This document shows, piece after piece, positions 359 through 8,483 of a stretch of DNA of 8,483 nt. The notes beneath the pieces were generated by a model that was not told where the DNA came from, did not search any database, and saw only the letters and a program-made list of their open reading frames with translations. The translations under genes and the position numbers were made by a program. The number at the start of each line of letters is the position of its first letter. Position 1 is the first letter of the stretch. The DNA comes from Okeania sp. (lineage in GTDB: Bacteria > Cyanobacteriota > Cyanobacteriia > Cyanobacteriales > Microcoleaceae). The stretch spans positions 1-8,483 of the forward strand of contig NZ_JAYKGW010000068.1 of the NCBI RefSeq assembly GCF_035285525.1. The letters run 5' to 3'.

Positions 359-880
359 ATGTTATCTACTACAGAATTACTTATCGCTACTAAATGGTTT
401 GGTATTGCTACAATTGGATTTTTGATTTTGGCAATTATTGGCTTTATTTTGAAATGGGGATTTAGATTTAGATTAGTGGGAGTAACAGGTTTTATGGGAG
501 TGCTAACTGCTGGTTTATTTGGTTTAAGTTTAGGATTATTTAACCGGGTAGAAATTCCAGGTTCGGTTCCATATACATTAGTTTATGATAATGGTGGAAC
601 TAAAACTGTAATAGCTGTTTCTCCAACTATTTCCGAATCAGAATTAACCGCAACTATGGAACAAGCAGCAGGAGATTTATTTTCATCAGGCCGTTTAGGT
701 GGAGAGGATAAATTAACGATTAGAGTTAGAACAATTATTCATCCAGAAATAGGTGTTTCTGAACCTCTTTATTTAGGACAAGTTAAACGTTCTTTGTTTC
801 AACGAGAAGATGAAAATATAGAGTTGAAAATATTTCCAGAAACTTTAGCAAAGTTAGAAAATTATCAGACTCAAATGTAG
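359..880 (+). CDS. Ycf51-like (DUF2518-type) small membrane protein
   Basis: The 173-aa ORF has two N-terminal hydrophobic helices (WFGIATIGFLILAIIGFILKWGF and LVGVTGFMGVLTAGLFGLSLGLF) followed by a soluble domain. Size and layout match the cyanobacterial/plastid Ycf51 family as I recall it. AAGGA lies 5 nt upstream of the ATG. Confidence 0.5.
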   Translation: MLSTTELLIATKWFGIATIGFLILAIIGFILKWGFRFRLVGVTGFMGVLTAGLFGLSLGLFNRVEIPGSVPYTLVYDNGGTKTVIAVSPTISESELTATMEQAAGDLFSSGRLGGEDKLTIRVRTIIHPEIGVSEPLYLGQVKRSLFQREDENIELKIFPETLAKLENYQTQM

Positions 881-1222: not shown

Positions 1223-2539
1223 ATGACAAATCAAAGAGATTTATTGAAAAGATTATTCAATGCTTTTAAACCTTCTGAACCTTTAAAACCTGGCAGTTCA
1301 GTATATGTTAATTGTCAGGATGTTAGAGGAGATGGAGATGTTATTACAGATTTAGCAGAGAATATTAAATTATCTGATAACAATACTTGTCAACTTTATG
1401 CCGGACATCGAGGTGCGGGTAAATCAACTGAACTTTTACGACTTAAAAAACACCTGGAAGATCATGGATATTTTGTTGTTTATTTCGCTGCCGATGAAAA
1501 GGATATTAATCCGGAAGATACGGAATATTCTGATATTTTGTTGGCTTGTACCAGACATTTATTAGAACATCTGAAACAAGCTAATCCTGAACCATTATTA
1601 GATTGGTTAAATGCACGGTGGTCAGATTTAAAAGATTTAGCAAATACAGAAATATCTTTTAAAAATTTAGATATTGAATCACAAATTAGTCAATATGCAA
1701 AACTTACGGCACATATTAGAGCTGAACCTAGTTTAAGAAAAAAAATTAGAGATAAAGTTAATCCTAATACGGAGAGTTTAATATCAGCTTTAAATAGTTT
1801 TATTAGTGAAGGGAAAAAGAAACTTAGTTCATATTCCCAATTAGTAGTAATTGCTGACAACTTAGACCGGATTGTACCAATTTATCAGTCAGAAGAACGT
1901 ACTAATCACGATGAAATTTTTATCGACCGTAGTGCCCAATTAAAAGGATTAGATTGCCATACGATTTATACAATTCCTATTTCTATGATTTATTCTAATC
2001 ATGCTCTTAATATGAAAGCTGAATATGATGATTATCAAGTTTTACCAATGATTATGGTGGCAACTCCCGAGGGAGAAACTTATGAATCAGGAGTTGCTAA
2101 AATGAGGAAAATTATTGATAAAAGGGTTCAGGAAATTAAACCAAATTTATGTTTAGAAACAGAGTTATTTGAAAGTCGAGAAGTTTTGGATAAAGTTTGC
2201 TTAGTAAGTGGAGGTCATGTTCGGGATTTAATGTTTTTAATGCAAAGTGTAATTAAACGTGCTGGAGGTAAATTACCTATTACTGCTAGAGTTGTACAAA
2301 GAGCAATTACGGAAGCTAGACTTTCTTATATAAGGTCTATTCAAGAAGAGGAATGGCAAGTATTGGTAGATGTTTTTCGTTCTAAAAAAAAGTTAAATAA
2401 TCAACAGTACCGTAATTTATTATTTAATCGTTGTTTGCTAGAATATGTTTACTTTGATGAAGAGAGAGAAAAGCAAGTTTGGTATGATGTTCACCCATTG
2501 ATTAGAGGTGTACAAAAGTTTCAGGAGTTACTGCAATGA
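1223..2539 (+). CDS. STAND/Arch_ATPase-like (ORC/Cdc6-related) P-loop NTPase with no fused sensor or effector domain
   Basis: 438-aa ORF. Walker A is GHRGAGKST (aa 61-69, nt 1403-1429). Walker B is LVVIADNLD (aa 207-215, nt 1841-1867). A sensor-1-like strand TIYTIP follows. A GGxxR motif (VSGGHVRDL, aa 328-336) sits at the start of a helical/winged-helix-like C-terminal part, as in Arch_ATPase/AAA_16-type STAND NTPases. The N-terminal lead-in (YVNCQDVRGDGDVITDLAENI) resembles the segment before the P-loop in ORC/Cdc6-like ATPases. Confidence 0.75.
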   Translation: MTNQRDLLKRLFNAFKPSEPLKPGSSVYVNCQDVRGDGDVITDLAENIKLSDNNTCQLYAGHRGAGKSTELLRLKKHLEDHGYFVVYFAADEKDINPEDTEYSDILLACTRHLLEHLKQANPEPLLDWLNARWSDLKDLANTEISFKNLDIESQISQYAKLTAHIRAEPSLRKKIRDKVNPNTESLISALNSFISEGKKKLSSYSQLVVIADNLDRIVPIYQSEERTNHDEIFIDRSAQLKGLDCHTIYTIPISMIYSNHALNMKAEYDDYQVLPMIMVATPEGETYESGVAKMRKIIDKRVQEIKPNLCLETELFESREVLDKVCLVSGGHVRDLMFLMQSVIKRAGGKLPITARVVQRAITEARLSYIRSIQEEEWQVLVDVFRSKKKLNNQQYRNLLFNRCLLEYVYFDEEREKQVWYDVHPLIRGVQKFQELLQ

Positions 2540-2548
2540 AGGGAGAAA
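2451..2548 (+). repeat. Copy A of a 98-bp duplicated gene junction (3' end of the NTPase gene plus the first 13 nt of the TPR gene)
   Basis: It aligns without gaps to 2684-2781 with roughly 10 mismatches. It contains the functional NTPase stop (TGA 2537-2539) overlapping a relic ATG (2536-2538, ATGA) followed by AAGGGAGAAA, which is the same MKGE start as the TPR gene. Confidence 0.9.
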
Positions 2549-2555
2549 TAAGCGA

Positions 2556-2665
2556 AGACCTCTCCCCCAACCCCTCTCCTGCAAGGAGAGGGGAGAAATT
2601 TTCCCCCTTCCCTTGCAGGGAAGGGGGTTAGGGGGTTAGGTTTTACCCACAATTTTAGTCTAGAC
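2556..2665 (+). repeat. GC-rich double-hairpin repeat element, copy 1 (core 2556-2644, arm 2645-2665)
   Basis: The core holds two perfect palindromic hairpins, CCCCTCTCCTGCAAGGAGAGGGG and CCCCCTTCCCTTGCAGGGAAGGGGG. Their flanks CTCCCCCAAC / GTTAGGGGG are themselves complementary, and the core ends in TTTT. The arm is ACCCACAATTTTAGTCTAGAC. A second copy lies at 5852-5980. This is a typical Nostocales intergenic repeat family. Confidence 0.85.
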
Positions 2666-2683
2666 AAAGTATATACTTATTAC

Positions 2684-2781
2684 ACTTTGATGAAGAGGAA
2701 AAAAAGCAAATTTGGTATGATGTTCACCCATTGATTAGAGCAGTACAAAAGTTTCAGGAATTAGTTTAATGAAGGGAGAAA
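2684..2781 (+). repeat. Copy B of the duplicated gene junction (relic NTPase 3' end plus the functional start of the TPR gene)
   Basis: It reads FDEEEKKQIWYDVHPLIRAVQKFQELV* in frame, against FDEEREKQVWYDVHPLIRGVQKFQELLQ* in copy A. The relic stop TAA (2767-2769) overlaps the functional ATG (2769-2771) as TAATG. Confidence 0.9.
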
Positions 2782-4070
2782 AAATTGTTTCGGAAGAGGA
2801 TTTATTATTAACATTTGCAGAGGAATATGAAGCTTTAGTAGAGAATATTAGATTTAGTGAAGGTTTTTGTTTATTGTTTGTGGAATGTTCCCCAGTACAG
2901 GGAACAAAAATTATGGAGAAAGTTCGCCTGGATATTCCTGAAGAAAAAGCGGAAGTTTTGCCTTTAGATAAGACTATTTATAATTTTTACAATCGAGTCA
3001 AAGAATTTTCTAATCTGAAAAAAATTGATATTTTATTTGTGACTGGTTTGGAATATTCTCTGTATCAATATGAGGATGAAATGAAAGAGAGAGGTTGGGA
3101 TGATAATGAGATTATTTCTATTAGTAATAGAGGAGTTCCTCCAGTTTTAGTTAATTTGAATCAGCAGCGAGAAAGATTTAGGGATGATTTTGATATTTGC
3201 TTTGTGTTTTTGTTACCTAAGTTTGCTGTAGATTATCTGATTAAACGTGCCCCAGATTTTTTTGATTGGCGTTCTGGGTTATTTCGTTTTCCTATGGATA
3301 AGGAAAATTTAGAGCATGAAACTTTGCAGGCTTATTTCAAAAGATTAAAAAAAGAAGATTATGAAAACCTCACGCCTCAAGAATATAAGAAAGAATTAAT
3401 TGAAATTCAAAGTTTAATTGATGAGGATCATCAAACTCTGGAAAGAAAGGTAGATTTATTAATTGAGGAAGGTAGATTAAACAGCAATATCGGGAAATAT
3501 TTAGAAGCGATTTCTGCTTATGATAAAGCTTTAGAATTTAAACCAGAAAATGACCAAGCTTGGTACAATAAAGGCATTGCTCTGAAAAATTTAGGAAGAC
3601 ATGAACAGGCGATTTCTGCTTATGATAAAGCTTTAGAAATTAAACCAGATGATGACCAAGCTTGGTTTCATAAAGGTGTTGCTTTCCTACAGTTAAAATT
3701 TTATCAACAAGCAATAGTTGCATATAAAAAGTCTCTAGATATTAAACCAGACAATGAAGGTTCTATTAGTAATCTTGGCTTAATTAAATATGAAATAGGA
3801 AAAATAGATGAAGCAATAGAACATTGGCAAGCAGCGCTTAAAATTAATAACCAATTTGTAGAACCTAAATTAGCAATAGGAGTTGCCCTCTATAACAAAG
3901 GTGAAATTTCAGAAGGTTTAACAATAGCTAAAGCAGCATTAAAATTAGATAAAAGTTGGGGAAACTTACAGCGTCTCAAAAAAGAACTTTGGGGCAAAAA
4001 ACTATTATCAGATACAGCAAAGTTATTAGAAAACCCTCAGATAAAAGCCTTACTTTTATTGCATATATAG
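2769..4070 (+). CDS. Two-domain protein: N-terminal degenerate P-loop-like alpha/beta domain (aa 1 to about 180), a helical linker, then about 5 TPR repeats (aa 236 to about 405)
   Basis: 433-aa ORF. Clear 34-aa TPR units are present (AISAYDKALEFKPENDQAWYNKGIALKNLG, AISAYDKALEIKPDDDQAWFHKGVAFLQL, AIVAYKKSLDIKPDNEGSISNLGLIKYEIG, AIEHWQAALKINNQFVEPKLAIGVALYNKG, and others). The N-domain shows the pattern strand-loop-helix FCLLFVECSPVQGTKIMEKV (a degenerate Walker A position), then IDILFVTGLE (Walker B-like strand), then LNQQRERF and ICFVFLLP. Calling this domain an inactive NTPase fold is my inference. Confidence 0.8.
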   Translation: MKGEKIVSEEDLLLTFAEEYEALVENIRFSEGFCLLFVECSPVQGTKIMEKVRLDIPEEKAEVLPLDKTIYNFYNRVKEFSNLKKIDILFVTGLEYSLYQYEDEMKERGWDDNEIISISNRGVPPVLVNLNQQRERFRDDFDICFVFLLPKFAVDYLIKRAPDFFDWRSGLFRFPMDKENLEHETLQAYFKRLKKEDYENLTPQEYKKELIEIQSLIDEDHQTLERKVDLLIEEGRLNSNIGKYLEAISAYDKALEFKPENDQAWYNKGIALKNLGRHEQAISAYDKALEIKPDDDQAWFHKGVAFLQLKFYQQAIVAYKKSLDIKPDNEGSISNLGLIKYEIGKIDEAIEHWQAALKINNQFVEPKLAIGVALYNKGEISEGLTIAKAALKLDKSWGNLQRLKKELWGKKLLSDTAKLLENPQIKALLLLHI

Positions 4071-4211
4071 AATAGAAATAGTCAGTTTATTTTCTGAAGC
4101 ACTCAGCACAGAATAAGACTAACAAATTAATCCGTGTATCCGTGGCATAATCCCTGTGAGCTATCCGTAGCATAATCCCTATGAGCTTAGAAAATCCTCA
4201 GATAAAAGCCT
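4026..4211 (+). repeat. 25-bp direct repeat (4026-4050 and 4187-4211, 24/25 identical) bracketing a 136-bp insert that contains a 25-bp tandem duplication (4138-4162 and 4163-4187)
   Basis: The two repeat copies are TTAGAAAACCCTCAGATAAAAGCCT and TTAGAAAATCCTCAGATAAAAGCCT. The internal tandem is ATCCGTGGCATAATCCCTGTGAGCT followed by ATCCGTAGCATAATCCCTATGAGCT. Confidence 0.85.
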
Positions 4212-4356: not shown

Positions 4357-4478
4357 TATCATGTCCGGATAATAAGTTCTCAAAAAACTTTTCCCTTTAA
4401 ACCTTTCTTTTCCTTCTGCCTTCTGCCTTCTGCCTTCTGCCTTCCTTACTCAAAAATTTAACTATTCCGGACATAATA
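4357..4478. repeat. Module bounded by an inverted repeat and enclosing (CCTTCTG)x4, immediately 3' of the ArsA-family gene
   Basis: The inverted repeat is TATCATGTCCGGA (4357-4369) and TCCGGACATAATA (4466-4478), 12/13 complementary. Four perfect CCTTCTG heptamers plus a degenerate fifth lie at 4412-4446. On the minus strand this would fold in the 3' UTR of the 4483-5670 gene. Confidence 0.75.
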
Positions 4479-4482
4479 TAAC

Positions 4483-5670
4483 CTAAACTTTTGCCACTTC
4501 AGCAAACCTAATCTTCAAATAATCATCCTCCATTTTCGCCCCCGCAGGTTGCAACGCTGCTAAAGCTTGAGGCAAAACCAAATTCCGACGATGATTACCA
4601 ATTCTAATATTCAATTCATCCCCAGTTTTATTCAGTTGAATTTTCTCCTTCGGAATACCAGGCAAATATAACTGCAAATTATAATTACCCTTCTCCTGCA
4701 CCACCTTAACAGTATTTTCCTTATAATAAACCTGACTAGGATCCTCATCTCCATAAAGAGTTTCCTTCAATCTTTCCAAAGCAGCCAAACCACACATTTC
4801 CTCAGAATAAAGAGGCACTTCCTTCACAGGTAAAGGTCTAAAATTATCGTGAATTTCTTGCCGATATTGCTGTTGATTTTCCTTCCATTTTTGAAAGAAA
4901 GGATCGGTTACAGAATCAGGAATAATTCTATTAGCAACTACTAAATCTGTAGAAACATTATATAAACTTAAATAAGCATGAGCCCTTAAAGACTCCTTAA
5001 TAACCATCTTCTCAGGATTAGTAACTAACCGCACAGAAGTCTTAGTATTATCAGTCAAAACCTTTTCCAAAGCCTCTATTTGTTCATAAAATTCATAAGG
5101 AGCATCCATGACTTCTTTATCAGGCAAAGAAAAACCAGTAATAGGTTTAAAAATAGGCTCAAAAAGAGGTCTCAAAGCAACCGACATTCCCTGCAAAGGT
5201 TTATAAAACTTCCTCATATACCAACCCCCTACTTCCGGCAAACTCAAAAGTCGTAAAGCAGTACCTGTCGGAGCAGAATCAATAATTAAAACATCATATT
5301 CCCCCTCATCATAGTGCCGCTTCATCCGCACCAGACCAAAAATTTCATCCATTCCCGGCAAAATAGCCAACTCCTCAGCTTGGACACCATCCAAACCCCG
5401 CGCCTGCAAAACTTGAGTAATATAACGCTTCACAGCTCCCCAGTTTCCCTCAAGTTCCATCAAAGCATCCAACTCCGCACCCCAAAGATTTTCCCTAACC
5501 TTCCGAGGTTCGTGACTCATTTCCATATCAAAGCTATCTGCTAAAGAGTGAGCTGGATCGGTGCTGAGAACCAAAGTTTTATGGCCTAACTCCGCACAAC
5601 GTAGTCCCGTTGAGGCCGCTACCGATGTTTTGCCAACCCCACCTTTTCCCGTCATTAATATTACGCGCAT
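4483..5670 (-). CDS. arsA: ArsA/GET3/TRC40-family ATPase with a C-terminal HSP20-like (alpha-crystallin-type) domain
   Basis: 395-aa ORF. It has the deviant Walker [12 protein letters not shown], the motif [13 protein letters not shown], and the ArsA/Get3 signature [16 protein letters not shown]. The C-terminal part, [38 protein letters not shown]...YLKIRF, resembles the ArsA_HSP20 domain. It is the cyanobacterial single-domain ArsA/Get3 type, so the symbol reflects the family, not proven arsenite transport. Confidence 0.9.
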
Positions 5671-5851: not shown

Positions 5852-5980
5852 AAAAACCTAACCCCCCAACCCCCTTCCCTCCCAGGGAAGGGGGAGAAAG
5901 ACTCCCCTCTCCTTGTAGGAGAGGGGTTGGGGGAGAGGTCTTCTAGACCTGACTCAAATACCCACAATTTTGGTCTAGAC
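5852..5980. repeat. GC-rich double-hairpin repeat element, copy 2 (core inverted relative to copy 1, 5852-5941; arm 5960-5980)
   Basis: The reverse complement of 5852-5941 is AGACCTCTCCCCCAACCCCTCTCCTACAAGGAGAGGGGAG...CCCCCTTCCCTGGGAGGGAAGGGGGTTGGGGGGTTAGGTTTTT, which matches the core at 2556-2644. The arm ACCCACAATTTTGGTCTAGAC matches 2645-2665 at 20/21 positions but lies in the same plus-strand orientation. The element sits directly 3' of the stop of the 5987-6367 gene, and on the minus strand it ends in T5, so it could act as a terminator. Confidence 0.85.
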
Positions 5981-6367: not shown

Positions 6368-6440
6368 TTAATTTATTGCTGATTGTTTTGTTCTTTATTC
6401 AATTTCAAATCTGAAAATATATAGCCATAATAAATCATTC

Positions 6441-6793
6441 CAGAGAAAAAACTGTAGGGATTTAGTCTCCAAACCCAAGCGCAAAGGATTTTGTCTCCAA
6501 ACCCCTACGATAAAATATTAAAACCTATTAAAGATTGCTATATTTTTAACTAATAACTGAAAAGATTTAACTTGCTTTGATCAAGTAAGGTTTTAACCCA
6601 AGGTAATTATCCATTATCTATTATTCAAGAGAAAAAAACTGTAGGGATTTTGTCTCCAAACCCCTACGATAAAATATTAAAACCTATTAAAGATTGCTAT
6701 ATTTTAACTAATAATTGGAAAGACTTACAAAAGGTATGACAGCCTTCTAGGCTGTGTTACAAAGGTTTTAATTACAGGTAATTATCAATTATC
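6441..6793. repeat. Tandem duplication of a ~170-185 bp intergenic unit (unit 1 at 6441-6618, unit 2 at 6626-6793)
   Basis: Both units share AGAGAAAAAACTGTAGGGATTT...GGATTTTGTCTCCAAACCCCTACGATAAAATATTAAAACCTATTAAAGATTGCTATATTTT (6486-6546 against 6645-6704, nearly identical). Both also share ends GGTTTTAA(CCC/TTA)(A/C)AGGTAATTATC(C/A)ATTATC. Unit 1 carries an extra internal duplication of about 27 nt (GGATTTAGTCTCCAAACCC AAGCGCAAA GGATTTTGTCTCCAAACCC). Confidence 0.8.
6632..6667 (-). terminator. Intrinsic terminator-like hairpin on the minus strand, downstream of the 6799-7362 gene
   Basis: The minus strand reads GTAGGGGTTT-GGAGACA-AAATCCCTAC (a 10-bp stem including one G-U pair, 7-nt loop) followed by AG and T7. 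A second small hairpin, ACAGCC-TTCTA-GGCTGT, lies at 6740-6756. Confidence 0.5.
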
Positions 6794-6798
6794 AATTA

Positions 6799-7362
6799 TT
6801 AATTATCTTCATACCATAAACGCTCTAACTGATAACGCCAAGCTGACAAAGTTTTTTCCCGATATTCTAAATTCATATCTATTTCTCCCATTAAACCTTC
6901 TGCATAAAAACGTTCTAAAGTTTGCATAGTTGCTTCTAAAGTTTGTCCTTGGAGTTTTGCTGCCTTAATTACTTGACGAATTTGATTTTCTATTACTTCA
7001 TTAAAATAACCAGATATACCTTGCTCTTTTAAATCAAGTAATCTTTGAATAGCCTCTCTAAAATCTGCCACTGTTAATGTATAAAAATTATACTGAAATA
7101 CTCCCCAAAGAACATTTTCATAGATAGCATAACGAGTTTCTAAAGTAACATCAAAATTAGCTTCAAGTAACTTTTCAAAAAAAGGTTGAGCATCTTCTTT
7201 AGGAGCAATTGGTATTAATATTCTCAACCAACTTTTGTCATCTGAGATAAGAATTAAAAGTCGAAACTTATCCGTTTCTATTTGCCATGAATTAGGTGAT
7301 AGAGTTTGAATAGATGCTCCAAATATATTTTGTAGTGTTTGAGTAATTTCTAATAAATTCAT
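6799..7362 (-). CDS. Hypothetical protein: N-terminal CesT/SycE/YbjN-like (type III chaperone-fold) domain plus a C-terminal helical extension
   Basis: 187-aa ORF. Its predicted secondary-structure rhythm is strands WQIETD, FRLLILISDD and WLRILIPIA, helix FFEKLLEANFD, strands RYAIYENVLWGVFQY, then helix DFREAIQRLLDL. This matches the alpha-beta3-alpha-beta2-alpha chaperone-like fold. The call is pattern recognition only. Confidence 0.4.
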   Translation of the reverse strand: MNLLEITQTLQNIFGASIQTLSPNSWQIETDKFRLLILISDDKSWLRILIPIAPKEDAQPFFEKLLEANFDVTLETRYAIYENVLWGVFQYNFYTLTVADFREAIQRLLDLKEQGISGYFNEVIENQIRQVIKAAKLQGQTLEATMQTLERFYAEGLMGEIDMNLEYREKTLSAWRYQLERLWYEDN

Positions 7363-7824: not shown

Positions 7825-8483
7825 TTAGCCCATCCATTCGAGAACAGCTTCTTCTTTAGTATTAGTACGACGATCTGGAGTTTCACGATTAAACTTCATG
7901 TGAATAGAGCGGTTTTGTTCACCATCAACTGCTACTGCCATGATTGGATAATCAATCAAACCATCAGGGAAAGCCATTTGGAACCGGAATGTACCATCAG
8001 GATTCAATTTAATAGGTCGTCCACCGATGGTAACAGTGGCATCAGGTTCAGTTGCACCGTGGATAATAAGTTCAGCATCAGCAACTAACCAGAACTTGCG
8101 GGGACGAACTGGTGGCATGGAGGCAGCAACACCAGACATATTCATGCCCATACCGGAAGTGGTTAAACCAATACCAGACATATTCATGCCCATACCGGAA
8201 GTGGTTAAACCAATACCTGACATATTCATACCCATACCGGAAGCAGTTAAACCCATACCGGACATACTCATACCCATACCGGAAGCAGTTAAACCCATAC
8301 CGGACATACTCATACCCATACCAGAAGCAGTTAAACCCATACCAGAAGTTGTTAAACCTACACCTGACATTCCGATACCCATACCAGAAGCAGTTAAACC
8401 TATTCCAGAAGTTGTTAAACCTACACCTGACATTCCGATACCCATACCAGAAGTTGTTAAACCCATACCAGAAGCAGTTAACC
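7825..8483 (-). CDS. 3' part of a gene for a Met/Gly/Ser/Thr-rich tandem-repeat protein with a DUF4912-like conserved C-terminal domain (5' end outside the window)
   Basis: The ORF stays open to the window edge: codons upstream of the listed Met read ..GLTASG, continuing the repeat. The C-terminal 100 aa, PRKFWLVADAELIIHGATEPDATVTIGGRPIKLNPDGTFRFQMAFPDGLIDYPIMAVAVDGEQNRSIHMKFNRET, matches my recollection of the cyanobacterial DUF4912 domain. The upstream part is SG[MIV]G[LMI]xx heptads. Confidence 0.6.
   Translation of the reverse strand, partial: LTASGMGLTTSGMGIGMSGVGLTTSGIGLTASGMGIGMSGVGLTTSGMGLTASGMGMSMSGMGLTASGMGMSMSGMGLTASGMGMNMSGIGLTTSGMGMNMSGIGLTTSGMGMNMSGVAASMPPVRPRKFWLVADAELIIHGATEPDATVTIGGRPIKLNPDGTFRFQMAFPDGLIDYPIMAVAVDGEQNRSIHMKFNRETPDRRTNTKEEAVLEWMG
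8131..8483 (-). repeat. In-frame tandem array of 42-bp (14-aa) units with interspersed 21-bp half units inside the CDS
   Basis: 8131-8172 and 8173-8214 are identical 42-mers. 8215-8256, 8257-8298 and 8299-8340 differ at only a few positions. 8362-8403 and 8425-8466 form a second variant, separated by 21-bp half units (8341-8361 and 8404-8424). Confidence 0.9.

Follow-up and report, generated by a model that had tools for sequence, protein, structure and literature searches.

The 8,483-nt stretch of Okeania sp. contig NZ_JAYKGW010000068.1 analyzed here (the window) carries, as the two longest ORFs (open reading frames) of its plus strand, two adjacent genes that we call ORF1 and ORF2 (Table 1). 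ORF1 encodes a putative AAA+ ATPase and ORF2 a protein in which a predicted AAA+-like N-terminal domain (N-domain) is followed by tetratricopeptide repeats (TPRs). ORF1 and ORF2 are an obligate conserved pair, ancestrally overlapped at an ATGA junction and translationally coupled. An earlier note, made from the letters of this DNA without database searches, had described the locus as a stand-alone STAND-type nucleoside triphosphatase (NTPase) split from its repeat sensor and lying in an accessory, defense-related context. As an observation the note has proved largely right, if confirmed only in part; of its interpretation, the pairing, the coupling, the AAA+-like fold of the ORF2 N-domain, the sensor-like TPR array and the lack of an effector have held up, and the STAND class and the accessory context have not.

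Table 1. Coordinates of the gene pair and its features in the window.
Feature	Position	Strand	Description
ORF1, AAA+ ATPase gene	1223-2539	+	438 aa, ORF call
Walker A, GHRGAGKST	1403-1429	+	ORF1 aa 61-69; lysine is K67
Walker B strand, LVVIADNLD	1841-1867	+	ORF1 aa 207-215
GGHVR, sensor-2-like arginine motif of the lid	2210-2224	+	ORF1 aa 330-334
Winged-helix-like C-terminal domain	2351-2536	+	ORF1 aa 377-438, predicted (AlphaFold2 model)
Junction copy A	2451-2551		True ORF1 3' end with ATGA, followed by 13 nt that resemble the start of ORF2
MITE-like palindromic repeat	2554-2644		Inserted between ORF1 and ORF2
Junction copy B	2684-2784		Relic ORF1 tail whose TAA (2767-2769) overlaps the functional start codon of ORF2 (ATG at 2769)
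ORF2 gene	2769-4070	+	433 aa: predicted pseudo-AAA+ N-domain, helical linker, ~5 TPRs, conserved end-cap
ORF2 N-domain	2769-3299	+	aa 1-177, predicted AAA+-like alpha/beta core without Walker A lysine
TPR array	3453-3968	+	ORF2 aa ~229-400, ~5 units
Second insertion footprint, ORF2 3' end	4026-4211		25-nt copies at 4026-4050 and 4187-4211 around a 136-nt insert

ORF1 has 2435 homologues at E <= 1e-3, the best 120 of which are all cyanobacterial, 58–80% identical and ~385–458 aa long. A relative is present in at least 384 species (one genome per GTDB species), a lower bound since the scan relied on exact matches to two patterns of nine residues. In databases the family goes under generic names only (ATP-binding protein, AAA family ATPase and, in two records, ‘PilB’). 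Across the homologue lists the proteins measure ~385–538 aa, too short for a repeat array; the repeats always lie in the following gene. Of 84 extracted loci, 80 have by tblastn an ORF2 N-domain gene as the next gene after the ORF1 homologue, downstream and in the same orientation, and in the remaining four the contig ends within ~320 nt of ORF1; the adjacency thus holds in all 80 loci in which the DNA extends far enough. Cyanobacteria account for each of the best 80 loci, and the taxa covered include Oscillatoriales, Okeania, Dapis, Trichodesmium, Microcoleus, Moorena, Nostocales, Pseudanabaena, Prochloron, Aphanothece and Chroococcales. The junctions overlap in 45 of 80 loci (34 by ATGA, 9 by 20 nt and 2 by 1 nt) and a further 8 have a gap of at most 60 nt. 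On three long contigs the downstream protein is 770–830 aa long, with the N-domain followed by many TPRs, and the overlap is 4 nt in two of them. A fused ORF1-ORF2 protein occurs in none of the homologue lists; two separate genes are the only state observed, which is not one of recent fission. Of the ‘split’ system of the earlier note, the two-polypeptide arrangement is supported and the splitting of a fused form is not. Among model strains with checkable names the pair was not seen (Nostocales query and cluster look-ups), which makes losses probable.

The ancestral overlap is still legible in the window, where ORF1 ends in ATGA (2536–2539), ORF2 starts at TAATG (2767–2771) and 229 nt (2540–2768) lie between them. 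The two junction copies in Table 1 are 101-nt direct repeats that are 89% identical and that enclose a miniature inverted-repeat transposable element (MITE)-like repeat. This repeat, a G+C-rich palindrome with an internal 35-nt inverted repeat at 2564–2633, is 91% complementary over 91 nt to a copy at 5853–5943, between the Get3/ArsA and DUF2358 genes, and the inserted region has a G+C content (GC) of 41.9%. Because the junction is duplicated around the MITE-like repeat, we conclude that an insertion separated the formerly overlapping genes. The relic junction had been proposed from the ATGA and TAATG; the 101-nt copies make the case stronger than was claimed. No intrinsic terminator was detected within the inserted spacer, and ORF2 retains its ATG, with AGGAA 9–13 nt upstream. 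Junction duplications also occur in Dapis (85 nt) and in two Okeania genomes (32 and 21 nt), around inserts unlike the window’s repeat. Insertions recur at the ORF1/ORF2 junction, where spacers of 95–2432 nt separate the genes in 27 of 80 loci, many of which retain ATGA at the ORF1 stop.

A second footprint marks the 3' end of ORF2, where the 25-nt copies are 96% identical and the insert contains a 25-nt tandem pair (4137–4186). The downstream copy reads LENPQIKA-stop, hence the last six residues of ORF2 (LLLLHI) are probably insert-derived. Read from its sequence, the window’s operon is split by a repeat and its TPR array is short (~5 units), yet both frames and the catalytic residues are intact. 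One might propose that the locus reports local decay in this Okeania genome, with the operon split, the TPR array contracted and the C-terminus of ORF2 replaced, a proposal compatible with the other readings weighed below. The 229-nt insertion with its duplicated junction, the 3' footprint and the comparison with the 787-aa Okeania KiyG1 orthologue, with which ORF2 is collinear except for ~10 TPR units fewer, are what decay would leave behind. However, both ORFs are full length with their invariant residues and the start signals of ORF2 preserved, the 27 relatives with enlarged spacers have intact genes, and arrays of 3–6 units occur in other genomes, so that decay seems to us barely credible as the explanation of the locus.

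ORF1 looks from its sequence like an active AAA+ ATPase in which the Walker A, Walker B and sensor-2-like residues are invariant. The ORF coordinates, both Walker motifs and the GGxxR motif noted earlier are all present, with key residues invariant or nearly so. In an alignment of 29 homologues (mean column identity 71%) there is no variation at G61, H62, R63, G64, G66, K67, S68 and T69 of Walker A, at I210, A211, D212, L214 and D215 of Walker B, or at S329, G330, G331, H332 and R334 of the lid motif. The AlphaFold2 (AF2) model built from this alignment (predicted local distance difference test score, pLDDT, of 78) is laid out as a conserved N-terminal segment, a P-loop core, a helical lid bearing GGHVR and a winged-helix-like end. 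It predicts a strand at 206–212 for Walker B, a helical insert of ~95 residues between Walker A and Walker B, helices at 319–346 that contain the lid motif and, at the C-terminus, helices 377–387 and 394–401 with a strand pair 405–411/417–423 (pLDDT 77–94). The lid motif SGGHVRDL resembles sensor-2 in Cdc6/RFC-type AAA+ proteins (GDAR); a weak dnaX N-terminal match at ORF1 aa 294–372, far under the NCBIfam cut-off, is the sole support from any tool for this likeness.

By its modeled fold and its profile scores, ORF1 is an AAA+ ATPase on the borderline between Orc1/Cdc6 and STAND proteins and not a confident member of the STAND class to which it had been assigned. The best Foldseek match in the PDB is archaeal Orc1/Cdc6 (2qby_A, E 1.7e-7), and the top 15 are all Orc1/Cdc6 or ORC subunits (E 1.7e-7 to 4e-4), led by 2qby_A, 7tji_I, 2v1u_A, 1w5t_A and 1fnn_A with probability 1.00 and template modeling (TM) scores of 0.36–0.49. 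Lower in the list stand RdrA (4e-4), TnsC (1.3e-3), the NLR Roq1 (2e-3) and Dark (6e-3). A nucleotide-binding domain (NBD), lid and winged helix are common to Orc1/Cdc6 and STAND proteins, and Foldseek places Orc1/Cdc6 well above STAND. Every Pfam, NCBIfam and PADLOC match of ORF1 is under its cut-off: AAA_16 scores 27.1 against 32.6, NPHP3_N 24.0 against 24.8, nSTAND_NTPase5 12.9 against 34 and the NCBIfam Sll1717 family 23.9 against 75, and ATPase_2 is likewise sub-threshold. The Pfam profiles of NB-ARC and NACHT do not match, nor do Cdc6, ORC, DnaA, IstB or TnsC among Pfam, NCBIfam and PDB chains. The best PADLOC match is PDC-S20 (E 1.9e-5, aa 61–221 only, the P-loop region), and the NCBIfam model DS41_1_antiphage (E 8.4e-5, 21.7 against a cut-off of 370) is confined to the P-loop region too. 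PDB searches with single sequences and profiles of ORF1 and of the ORF2 N-domain returned nothing meaningful.

The first ~220 residues of ORF2 have no Pfam, NCBIfam or PDB sequence match. From the strand-loop-helix FCLLFVECSPVQGTKIMEKV (aa 33–52) and the strand IDILFVTGLE (aa 86–95), the earlier note had seen a P-loop core with ruined catalytic residues in this region, and at the level of the fold the model, Foldseek and the alignment support an AAA+-like core with a ruined Walker A. The N-domain alignment (A1) is conserved at GFxLLFVxCSP, ILFxTGLE, NLNQQRERFRD and RAPDFFDWRS. After strand 1 (CSPxxGxx-I) it contains neither a conserved lysine nor GK[ST]; G93 and E95 are invariant after strand 3, and arginines R134, R136, R160 and R168 are conserved. 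The AF2 model, built from 21 sequences (pLDDT 80.5), is a five-stranded alpha/beta fold made of five strand-helix units. AAA+ proteins account for all but a few of the 50 Foldseek matches listed, and the matches include inactive or regulatory AAA+ proteins (Hda, delta-prime-like TM0771, ORC4/5, IstB and dynein modules). When 1.84 billion cluster representatives were searched with a profile, the N-domain turned up in 1322 proteins, with E <= 1e-30 for 229. Among the 150 matches listed it almost always begins within the first 50 residues, and 0–1000 residues then follow.

Taken together, the matches of the two proteins raise the prospect of a DNA-directed loader of the Orc1/Cdc6, TnsC or IstB type, which would bind DNA through the winged helix and control replication, segregation or transposition with ORF2 as adaptor. 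The top 15 Foldseek matches of ORF1, TnsC at ~1.3e-3 and the N-domain matches to Hda, delta-prime-like, ORC4/5 and IstB proteins are as this reading would predict. We nonetheless consider it very unlikely: TM scores reach only 0.33–0.49, sequence matches to Cdc6, DnaA, IstB, TnsC or a PDB chain are lacking, the neighborhoods conserve no transposase, recombinase or origin-like feature, and the same layout of NBD, lid and winged helix is found in STAND proteins that Foldseek also lists (RdrA, Roq1, Dark).

Beyond the N-domain, ORF2 matches Pfam TPR_1 (E 2.6e-31), TPR_2 and TPR_11, in four stretches each within ~aa 230–400, which agrees with the ~5 TPRs originally read from the sequence; PADLOC adds only generic TPR matches at 4e-4. 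The array contains direct repeats of 102 nt at 3486–3689, and its units are 71–86% identical. Counted with a hidden Markov model of the 34-residue unit, orthologues have 3–39 units (5–21 in Okeania, 5–17 in Microcoleus), some short counts possibly being assembly artefacts. In ~20 Microcoleus loci, a second, separate 400-aa TPR protein with 6–8 units is conserved a few hundred nt past the ORF2 orthologue (at 12174–13376 of one extracted locus). The orthologue in the finished genome of Trichodesmium erythraeum IMS101 (NC_008312.1; 7311–12395 of its extracted locus) is 1694 aa long and has 38–39 units with 93% nucleotide identity. Differences between these units are confined to positions 3, 4, 7, 10, 11, 22 and 34, that is, standard TPR positions 5, 6, 9, 12, 13, 24 and 2 when W is placed at standard position 4. 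From established TPR structure, we take these variable positions to be in essence the concave ligand face of helix A.

For an a-priori concave set (standard positions 2, 5, 9, 12 and 13), we expressed nonsynonymous polymorphism (pN) relative to the synonymous polymorphism (pS) of all codons. The ratio exceeds 1 in 24 of 28 arrays and reaches 2.6–4.3 in the four most homogeneous, and for the remaining TPR positions it is 0.28–1.09. These sequence comparisons support an ORF2 TPR array that behaves like a fast-evolving sensor. Highly conserved repeats of the NLR type are found in the orthologues; the window’s own array has only ~5 units at the 71–86% identity given above.

The pair had been thought accessory on account of a low GC, an IS630 remnant and flanking MITE-like repeats. 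The GC of ORF1 (31.7%) and ORF2 (31.3%) is set in a window of 34.4% and equals that of the adjoining genes (DUF2518 33.0%, DUF2358 33.1%, orf187 30.0%), so that foreignness based on GC is rejected; the only GC-richer genes are Get3/ArsA (40.6%) and a repeat-rich ORF at 7825–8466 (43.9%). The IS630 remnant is likewise rejected, on the ground that the nine small intergenic ORFs contain no IS630 or other transposase family, a six-frame scan of all spacer DNA not having been run. A phage origin was discarded after tblastn found no match in 50,697 phage records, and on plasmids tblastn gave no match to ORF1 above 35% identity. MITE-like repeats do flank the pair. With normal GC, syntenic housekeeping flanks and neither IS630, a PADLOC match nor a phage or plasmid orthologue, accessory status, and with it a defense-island setting, is unsupported.

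Clustering of all ORFs >= 90 aa in the 84 loci finds ORF1 and ORF2 to be the only universal families. The other recurring families are a response-regulator/kinase (38 loci), DUF2518 (35), peptidase M32 (26), radical-SAM (18) and HflX (9). DUF2518 lies upstream of the pair in its 35 loci, immediately so in the window (359–880), and it is also upstream in Trichodesmium, Okeania, Dapis and Microcoleus; the peptidase M32 gene is downstream in its 26 loci; and the order radical-SAM, pair, HflX recurs in Crinalium, Chlorogloeopsis, a Chroococcales metagenome-assembled genome and Phormidium. No defense, transposase or recombinase family and no origin-like feature recurs in the 84 neighborhoods. ORF1, the N-domain and the DUF2518 neighbor diverge in step, with respective identities of 80/75/87% in Dapis, 77/75/82% in T. 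erythraeum and 62/61/59% in Microcoleus. Crude Nei-Gojobori estimates of the ratio of nonsynonymous to synonymous substitution rates (dN/dS) are 0.11–0.32 for ORF1, 0.21–0.45 for the N-domain and 0.12–0.28 for DUF2518. The window’s orthologue group thus looks chromosomal and vertically inherited.

Several other features of the window were recorded. Upstream of ORF1 lies a MITE-like element with 36-nt inverted arms (927–962/1163–1198) that are 86% complementary and 200 nt apart. Three further ORFs are on the minus strand: a Get3/ArsA-family ATPase at 4483–5670 (ArsA_ATPase E 1.3e-113, C-terminal ArsA_HSP20 E 1.3e-22); a 187-aa ORF at 6799–7362 with only weak, sub-threshold CesT-chaperone similarity (E 0.008); and a 213-aa ORF at 7825–8466, the N-terminal two-thirds of which is a 21-nt (7-aa) tandem repeat of ~20 GMGLTASGMGMSMS-like copies and which ends in a ~90-aa non-repeat C-terminus, without a Pfam or NCBIfam match. 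Intergenic DNA at 6422–6800 contains a ~159-nt tandem duplication that includes perfect 61-nt copies (6486–6546 and 6645–6705), and a (TCTGCCT) x 4 microsatellite lies at 4414–4443, downstream of the Get3/ArsA gene.

A chromosomal, syntenic locus of this kind invites a housekeeping explanation, in which ORF2 would be a structural or cytoskeleton-like TPR polymer or an assembly platform and ORF1 its dedicated, ATP-driven assembly or remodeling factor; the pair would act in cell biology, for instance in building the envelope, the septum or a complex, with no sensing of non-self. Besides its position among DUF2518, peptidase M32, radical-SAM and HflX genes, the selection on ORF1 and the N-domain, which resembles that on DUF2518, the want of an effector or PADLOC match and the lack of orthologues on plasmids or phages would fit such a scaffold. 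There is also a published analogy. In Anabaena PCC 7120, All4981 (BAB76680.1) is a filament-forming, probably essential TPR protein of ~650 aa, for which interaction with MreB/SepJ has also been published and whose N-terminal part is free of TPRs (Springstein et al., 2020; PMC7002697); its gene overlaps the upstream all4982 by ATGA, the two are co-transcribed, and All4981 binds All4982 (PMC7002697). However, the All4981 peptides deduced from primers (MNSELFQKLAKA at the N-terminus and AKLKKIQSSDSNI at the C-terminus) and those from all4982 have no match among 502 proteins of the family, nor do sequences with the ORF1 or ORF2 family motifs occur in the supplement of that paper. Given these unmatched, primer-derived peptides, we keep All4981/All4982 as an analogy and do not claim it as a characterized orthologue. 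Weighing further against the scaffold are array lengths of 3–39 units that vary even within genera, with near-identical units that differ on the binding face, which is unusual for a fixed structural partner; plasmid paralogues in toxin-antitoxin and NACHT surroundings, one of them fused to TIR; and the fact that the pair was not seen in the name-checkable model strains. We regard a housekeeping scaffold as possible, if on the whole rather unlikely.

The plasmid paralogues are full-length relatives of ORF1 at 26–35% identity (tblastn). In five of six plasmid records examined, out of 10, the next gene downstream or, in Calothrix, the one after it encodes a repeat protein. Those of Acaryochloris pREB2, Nostoc UHCC 0302, Nostoc ATCC 53789 and Calothrix NIES-4101 have the same two families in the same order, the ATPases being 31–35% identical to ORF1 over its full length and the partner N-domains matching alignment A1 with hhalign probabilities of 93–97%. 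On pREB2 and two Nostoc plasmids, the gene after the ATPase encodes a protein of 1830–1840 aa, and on pREB2 it overlaps the ATPase gene by ATGA. The pREB2 partner opens with a homologue of the ORF2 N-domain (hhalign probability 94%); what remains of this protein, and likewise of the Nostoc UHCC 0302 partner, combines a TPR-like region with 14 WD40 repeats. Unlike the window’s chromosomal TPR branch, these partners are TPR-like and WD40 giants amid mobile and toxin-antitoxin genes: around the pREB2 pair lie HicAB, RelE/ParE, an integrase and a NACHT gene. Nostoc UHCC 0302 has a chromosomal orthologue as well as three plasmid paralogues. The cluster on Calothrix sp. NIES-4101 plasmid4 (5989–13284 of the extracted locus), the only effector-bearing member seen, encodes an ATPase, an ATPase-TIR protein and a WD40 protein. 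The second of these ATPases is 28% identical to ORF1 over aa 8–436 (E 2e-44) and has a C-terminal TIR domain (Pfam E 1.5e-33); the WD40 protein opens with two tandem N-domains (hhalign probabilities of 92.7% and 97.3%). Two ATPases and two N-domains are consistent with 1:1 docking. The superfamily thus includes a mobile WD40 branch that resembles a conflict system, the window belonging to a chromosomal, effector-less TPR branch.

From the pairing, the ancestral coupling, the folds, the repeat dynamics and the genomic context, we infer a possible mechanism in which docking, ligand gating and output are the conjectural steps. The pair would be a vertically inherited, split NOD-like switch, a reading that we prefer and put forward tentatively, as a little short of probable. 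ORF1 would be the active AAA+ ATPase, intermediate between the Orc1/Cdc6 and STAND types. The dead N-domain of ORF2 may dock on ORF1 at ~1:1, much as ORC and clamp loaders incorporate inactive subunits. ATP-dependent co-assembly would then be governed by a protein ligand that binds the TPRs on their variable concave face, and the signal might pass in trans to a component not encoded beside the pair, unless assembly itself is the output.

Several points weigh against the split switch. The structural likeness is modest, with TM scores of 0.3–0.5 (0.33–0.5 for ORF1), and the Foldseek matches of the N-domain are weak (E ~1e-3, TM 0.3–0.47). ORF1 and the N-domain have no detectable sequence homology (hhalign of their alignments, probability 0.1%), for which reason the N-domain was rejected as a recent ORF1 paralogue. 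Docking between the two proteins is a step argued from analogy, and the 2:2 match of ATPases and N-domains is a single case. As already stated in the earlier note, neither protein bears an effector domain (nuclease, protease, TIR, SIR2 or pore-former; Pfam, NCBIfam and PADLOC). The TIR link comes from a 28%-identical paralogue outside the window’s clade, and plasmid paralogues of 26–35% identity are the sole tie of the window’s orthologue group to conflict systems. Finally, pN/pS between units is confounded, and inflated, by gene conversion and by the amplification of a few unit types, less constrained surface positions of a TPR are expected to vary without selection, and in T. erythraeum each of the seven variable positions has only 2–4 residue states, as if a few unit types had recently been amplified in blocks.

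Two more committed versions of the switch can be considered. In the first, the pair would be an antiphage abortive-infection system of the NLR/Avs kind, whose TPRs recognize a phage protein and whose cell is killed or arrested through an unrecognized effector or one acting in trans. The combination of a NOD-like ATPase with repeats, the signature of highly conserved repeats, the weak sub-threshold similarities to PDC-S20 and DS41_1_antiphage, the TIR-fused paralogue and the other paralogues beside toxin-antitoxin and NACHT genes all lean in this direction. Yet no threshold is reached, no effector is present, no defense genes recur in the 84 neighborhoods, and the locus is stable and syntenic, with normal GC and strongly purifying selection. 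As the mechanistic core is that of the split switch, from which this version differs solely in its commitment to phage defense, we judge that commitment distinctly unlikely to be right. In the second, which we hold to be equally improbable, the pair would be a core, vertically inherited and effector-less receptor of cyanobacterial innate immunity or allorecognition in which an Orc1/Cdc6-like ATPase and a pseudo-ATPase with hypervariable, concertedly evolving TPRs co-polymerize once a ligand is recognized, the polymer being the output through containment or sequestration, and which would represent an evolutionary intermediate between AAA+ proteins of the ORC type and fused STAND/NLR receptors.

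If the split NOD-like switch is correct, the pair would be a widespread and previously undescribed two-protein form of NOD/NLR, present in at least 384 species-level genomes and with an N-domain family of more than 1300 clusters at 50% identity. It would be distinct in placing switching and sensing on separate, coupled polypeptides, in using a dead ATPase as a docking module and in having no attached effector. Sensor and motor could then be titrated separately, making a tractable system for NLR-like gating, and the pair would bear on the origin of STAND proteins from ORC/Cdc6-like AAA+ ancestors and on the role of near-identical, hypervariable bacterial repeats. Were the housekeeping scaffold true instead, the pair would define a new, cyanobacteria-specific kind of TPR scaffold under the control of an ATPase. 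On both views, two protein families of considerable size that lack a Pfam model now have an assigned fold and an obligate partner.

We found no published description of the two-gene family in the open-access literature, and a 2026 survey of Avs/STAND proteins (PMC13581612) contains nothing on a split or cyanobacterial pair of this type. The pair nevertheless shares features with several known systems. With iSTAND systems it has in common an inactive STAND/AAA+-like core component and cyanobacterial enrichment. What defines the ternary iSTAND systems is a MoxR-vWA couple together with effector or adaptor domains at the N-terminus (Kaur et al., 2020; PMC7159879); MoxR AAA+ and vWA genes are not among the recurring neighbors in the 84 loci, and membership of these systems was rejected for that reason. 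The TPR, ANK and WD repeats of fungal NLRs are reported to be highly identical within an array, polymorphic in number and variable on the concave face (Dyrka et al., 2014; PMC4986451). The orthologues of ORF2 resemble fungal NLRs (HET-E/NWD, NB-ARC-TPR) in their near-identical TPRs, their number polymorphism and their variable concave face. The fungal proteins are, however, single polypeptides with N-terminal effectors and TPR units mostly of 42 aa, whereas ORF2 has 34-aa units and is a separate protein.

Archaeal and eukaryotic Orc1/Cdc6 and the ORC subunits resemble the modeled ORF1 in their AAA+ core, in the GxxxR-type sensor-2 motif of the lid and in ending with a winged helix, and ORC mixes active and inactive AAA+ subunits, as ORF1 and ORF2 appear to do. 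Unlike Orc1/Cdc6, ORF1 has neither sequence membership nor an origin context, and it has a TPR partner and the ~95-aa helical insert. There is a parallel in logic with STAND and NOD-like proteins (MalT, AfsR, NB-ARC-TPR, Avs, bacterial NACHT), which combine a P-loop NTPase, lid and winged helix with superstructure-forming repeats, as the pair is predicted to do, and whose ligand-gated, nucleotide-dependent oligomerization would also be expected of ORF1 and ORF2. Of the features that define the STAND class (Leipe et al., 2004), ORF1 has intact Walker A and B motifs, stays below the curated family thresholds and lacks C-terminally fused sensor repeats. Instead, the repeats of the pair are on a second polypeptide with its own, apparently dead, AAA+-like domain, the pair has no effector or DNA-binding output and its STAND family scores are all sub-threshold, and ORF1 keeps a sensor-2-like arginine and is structurally nearer to Orc1/Cdc6. 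Finally, STAND genes are patchy and island-borne, whereas the locus of the pair is syntenic and vertically inherited.

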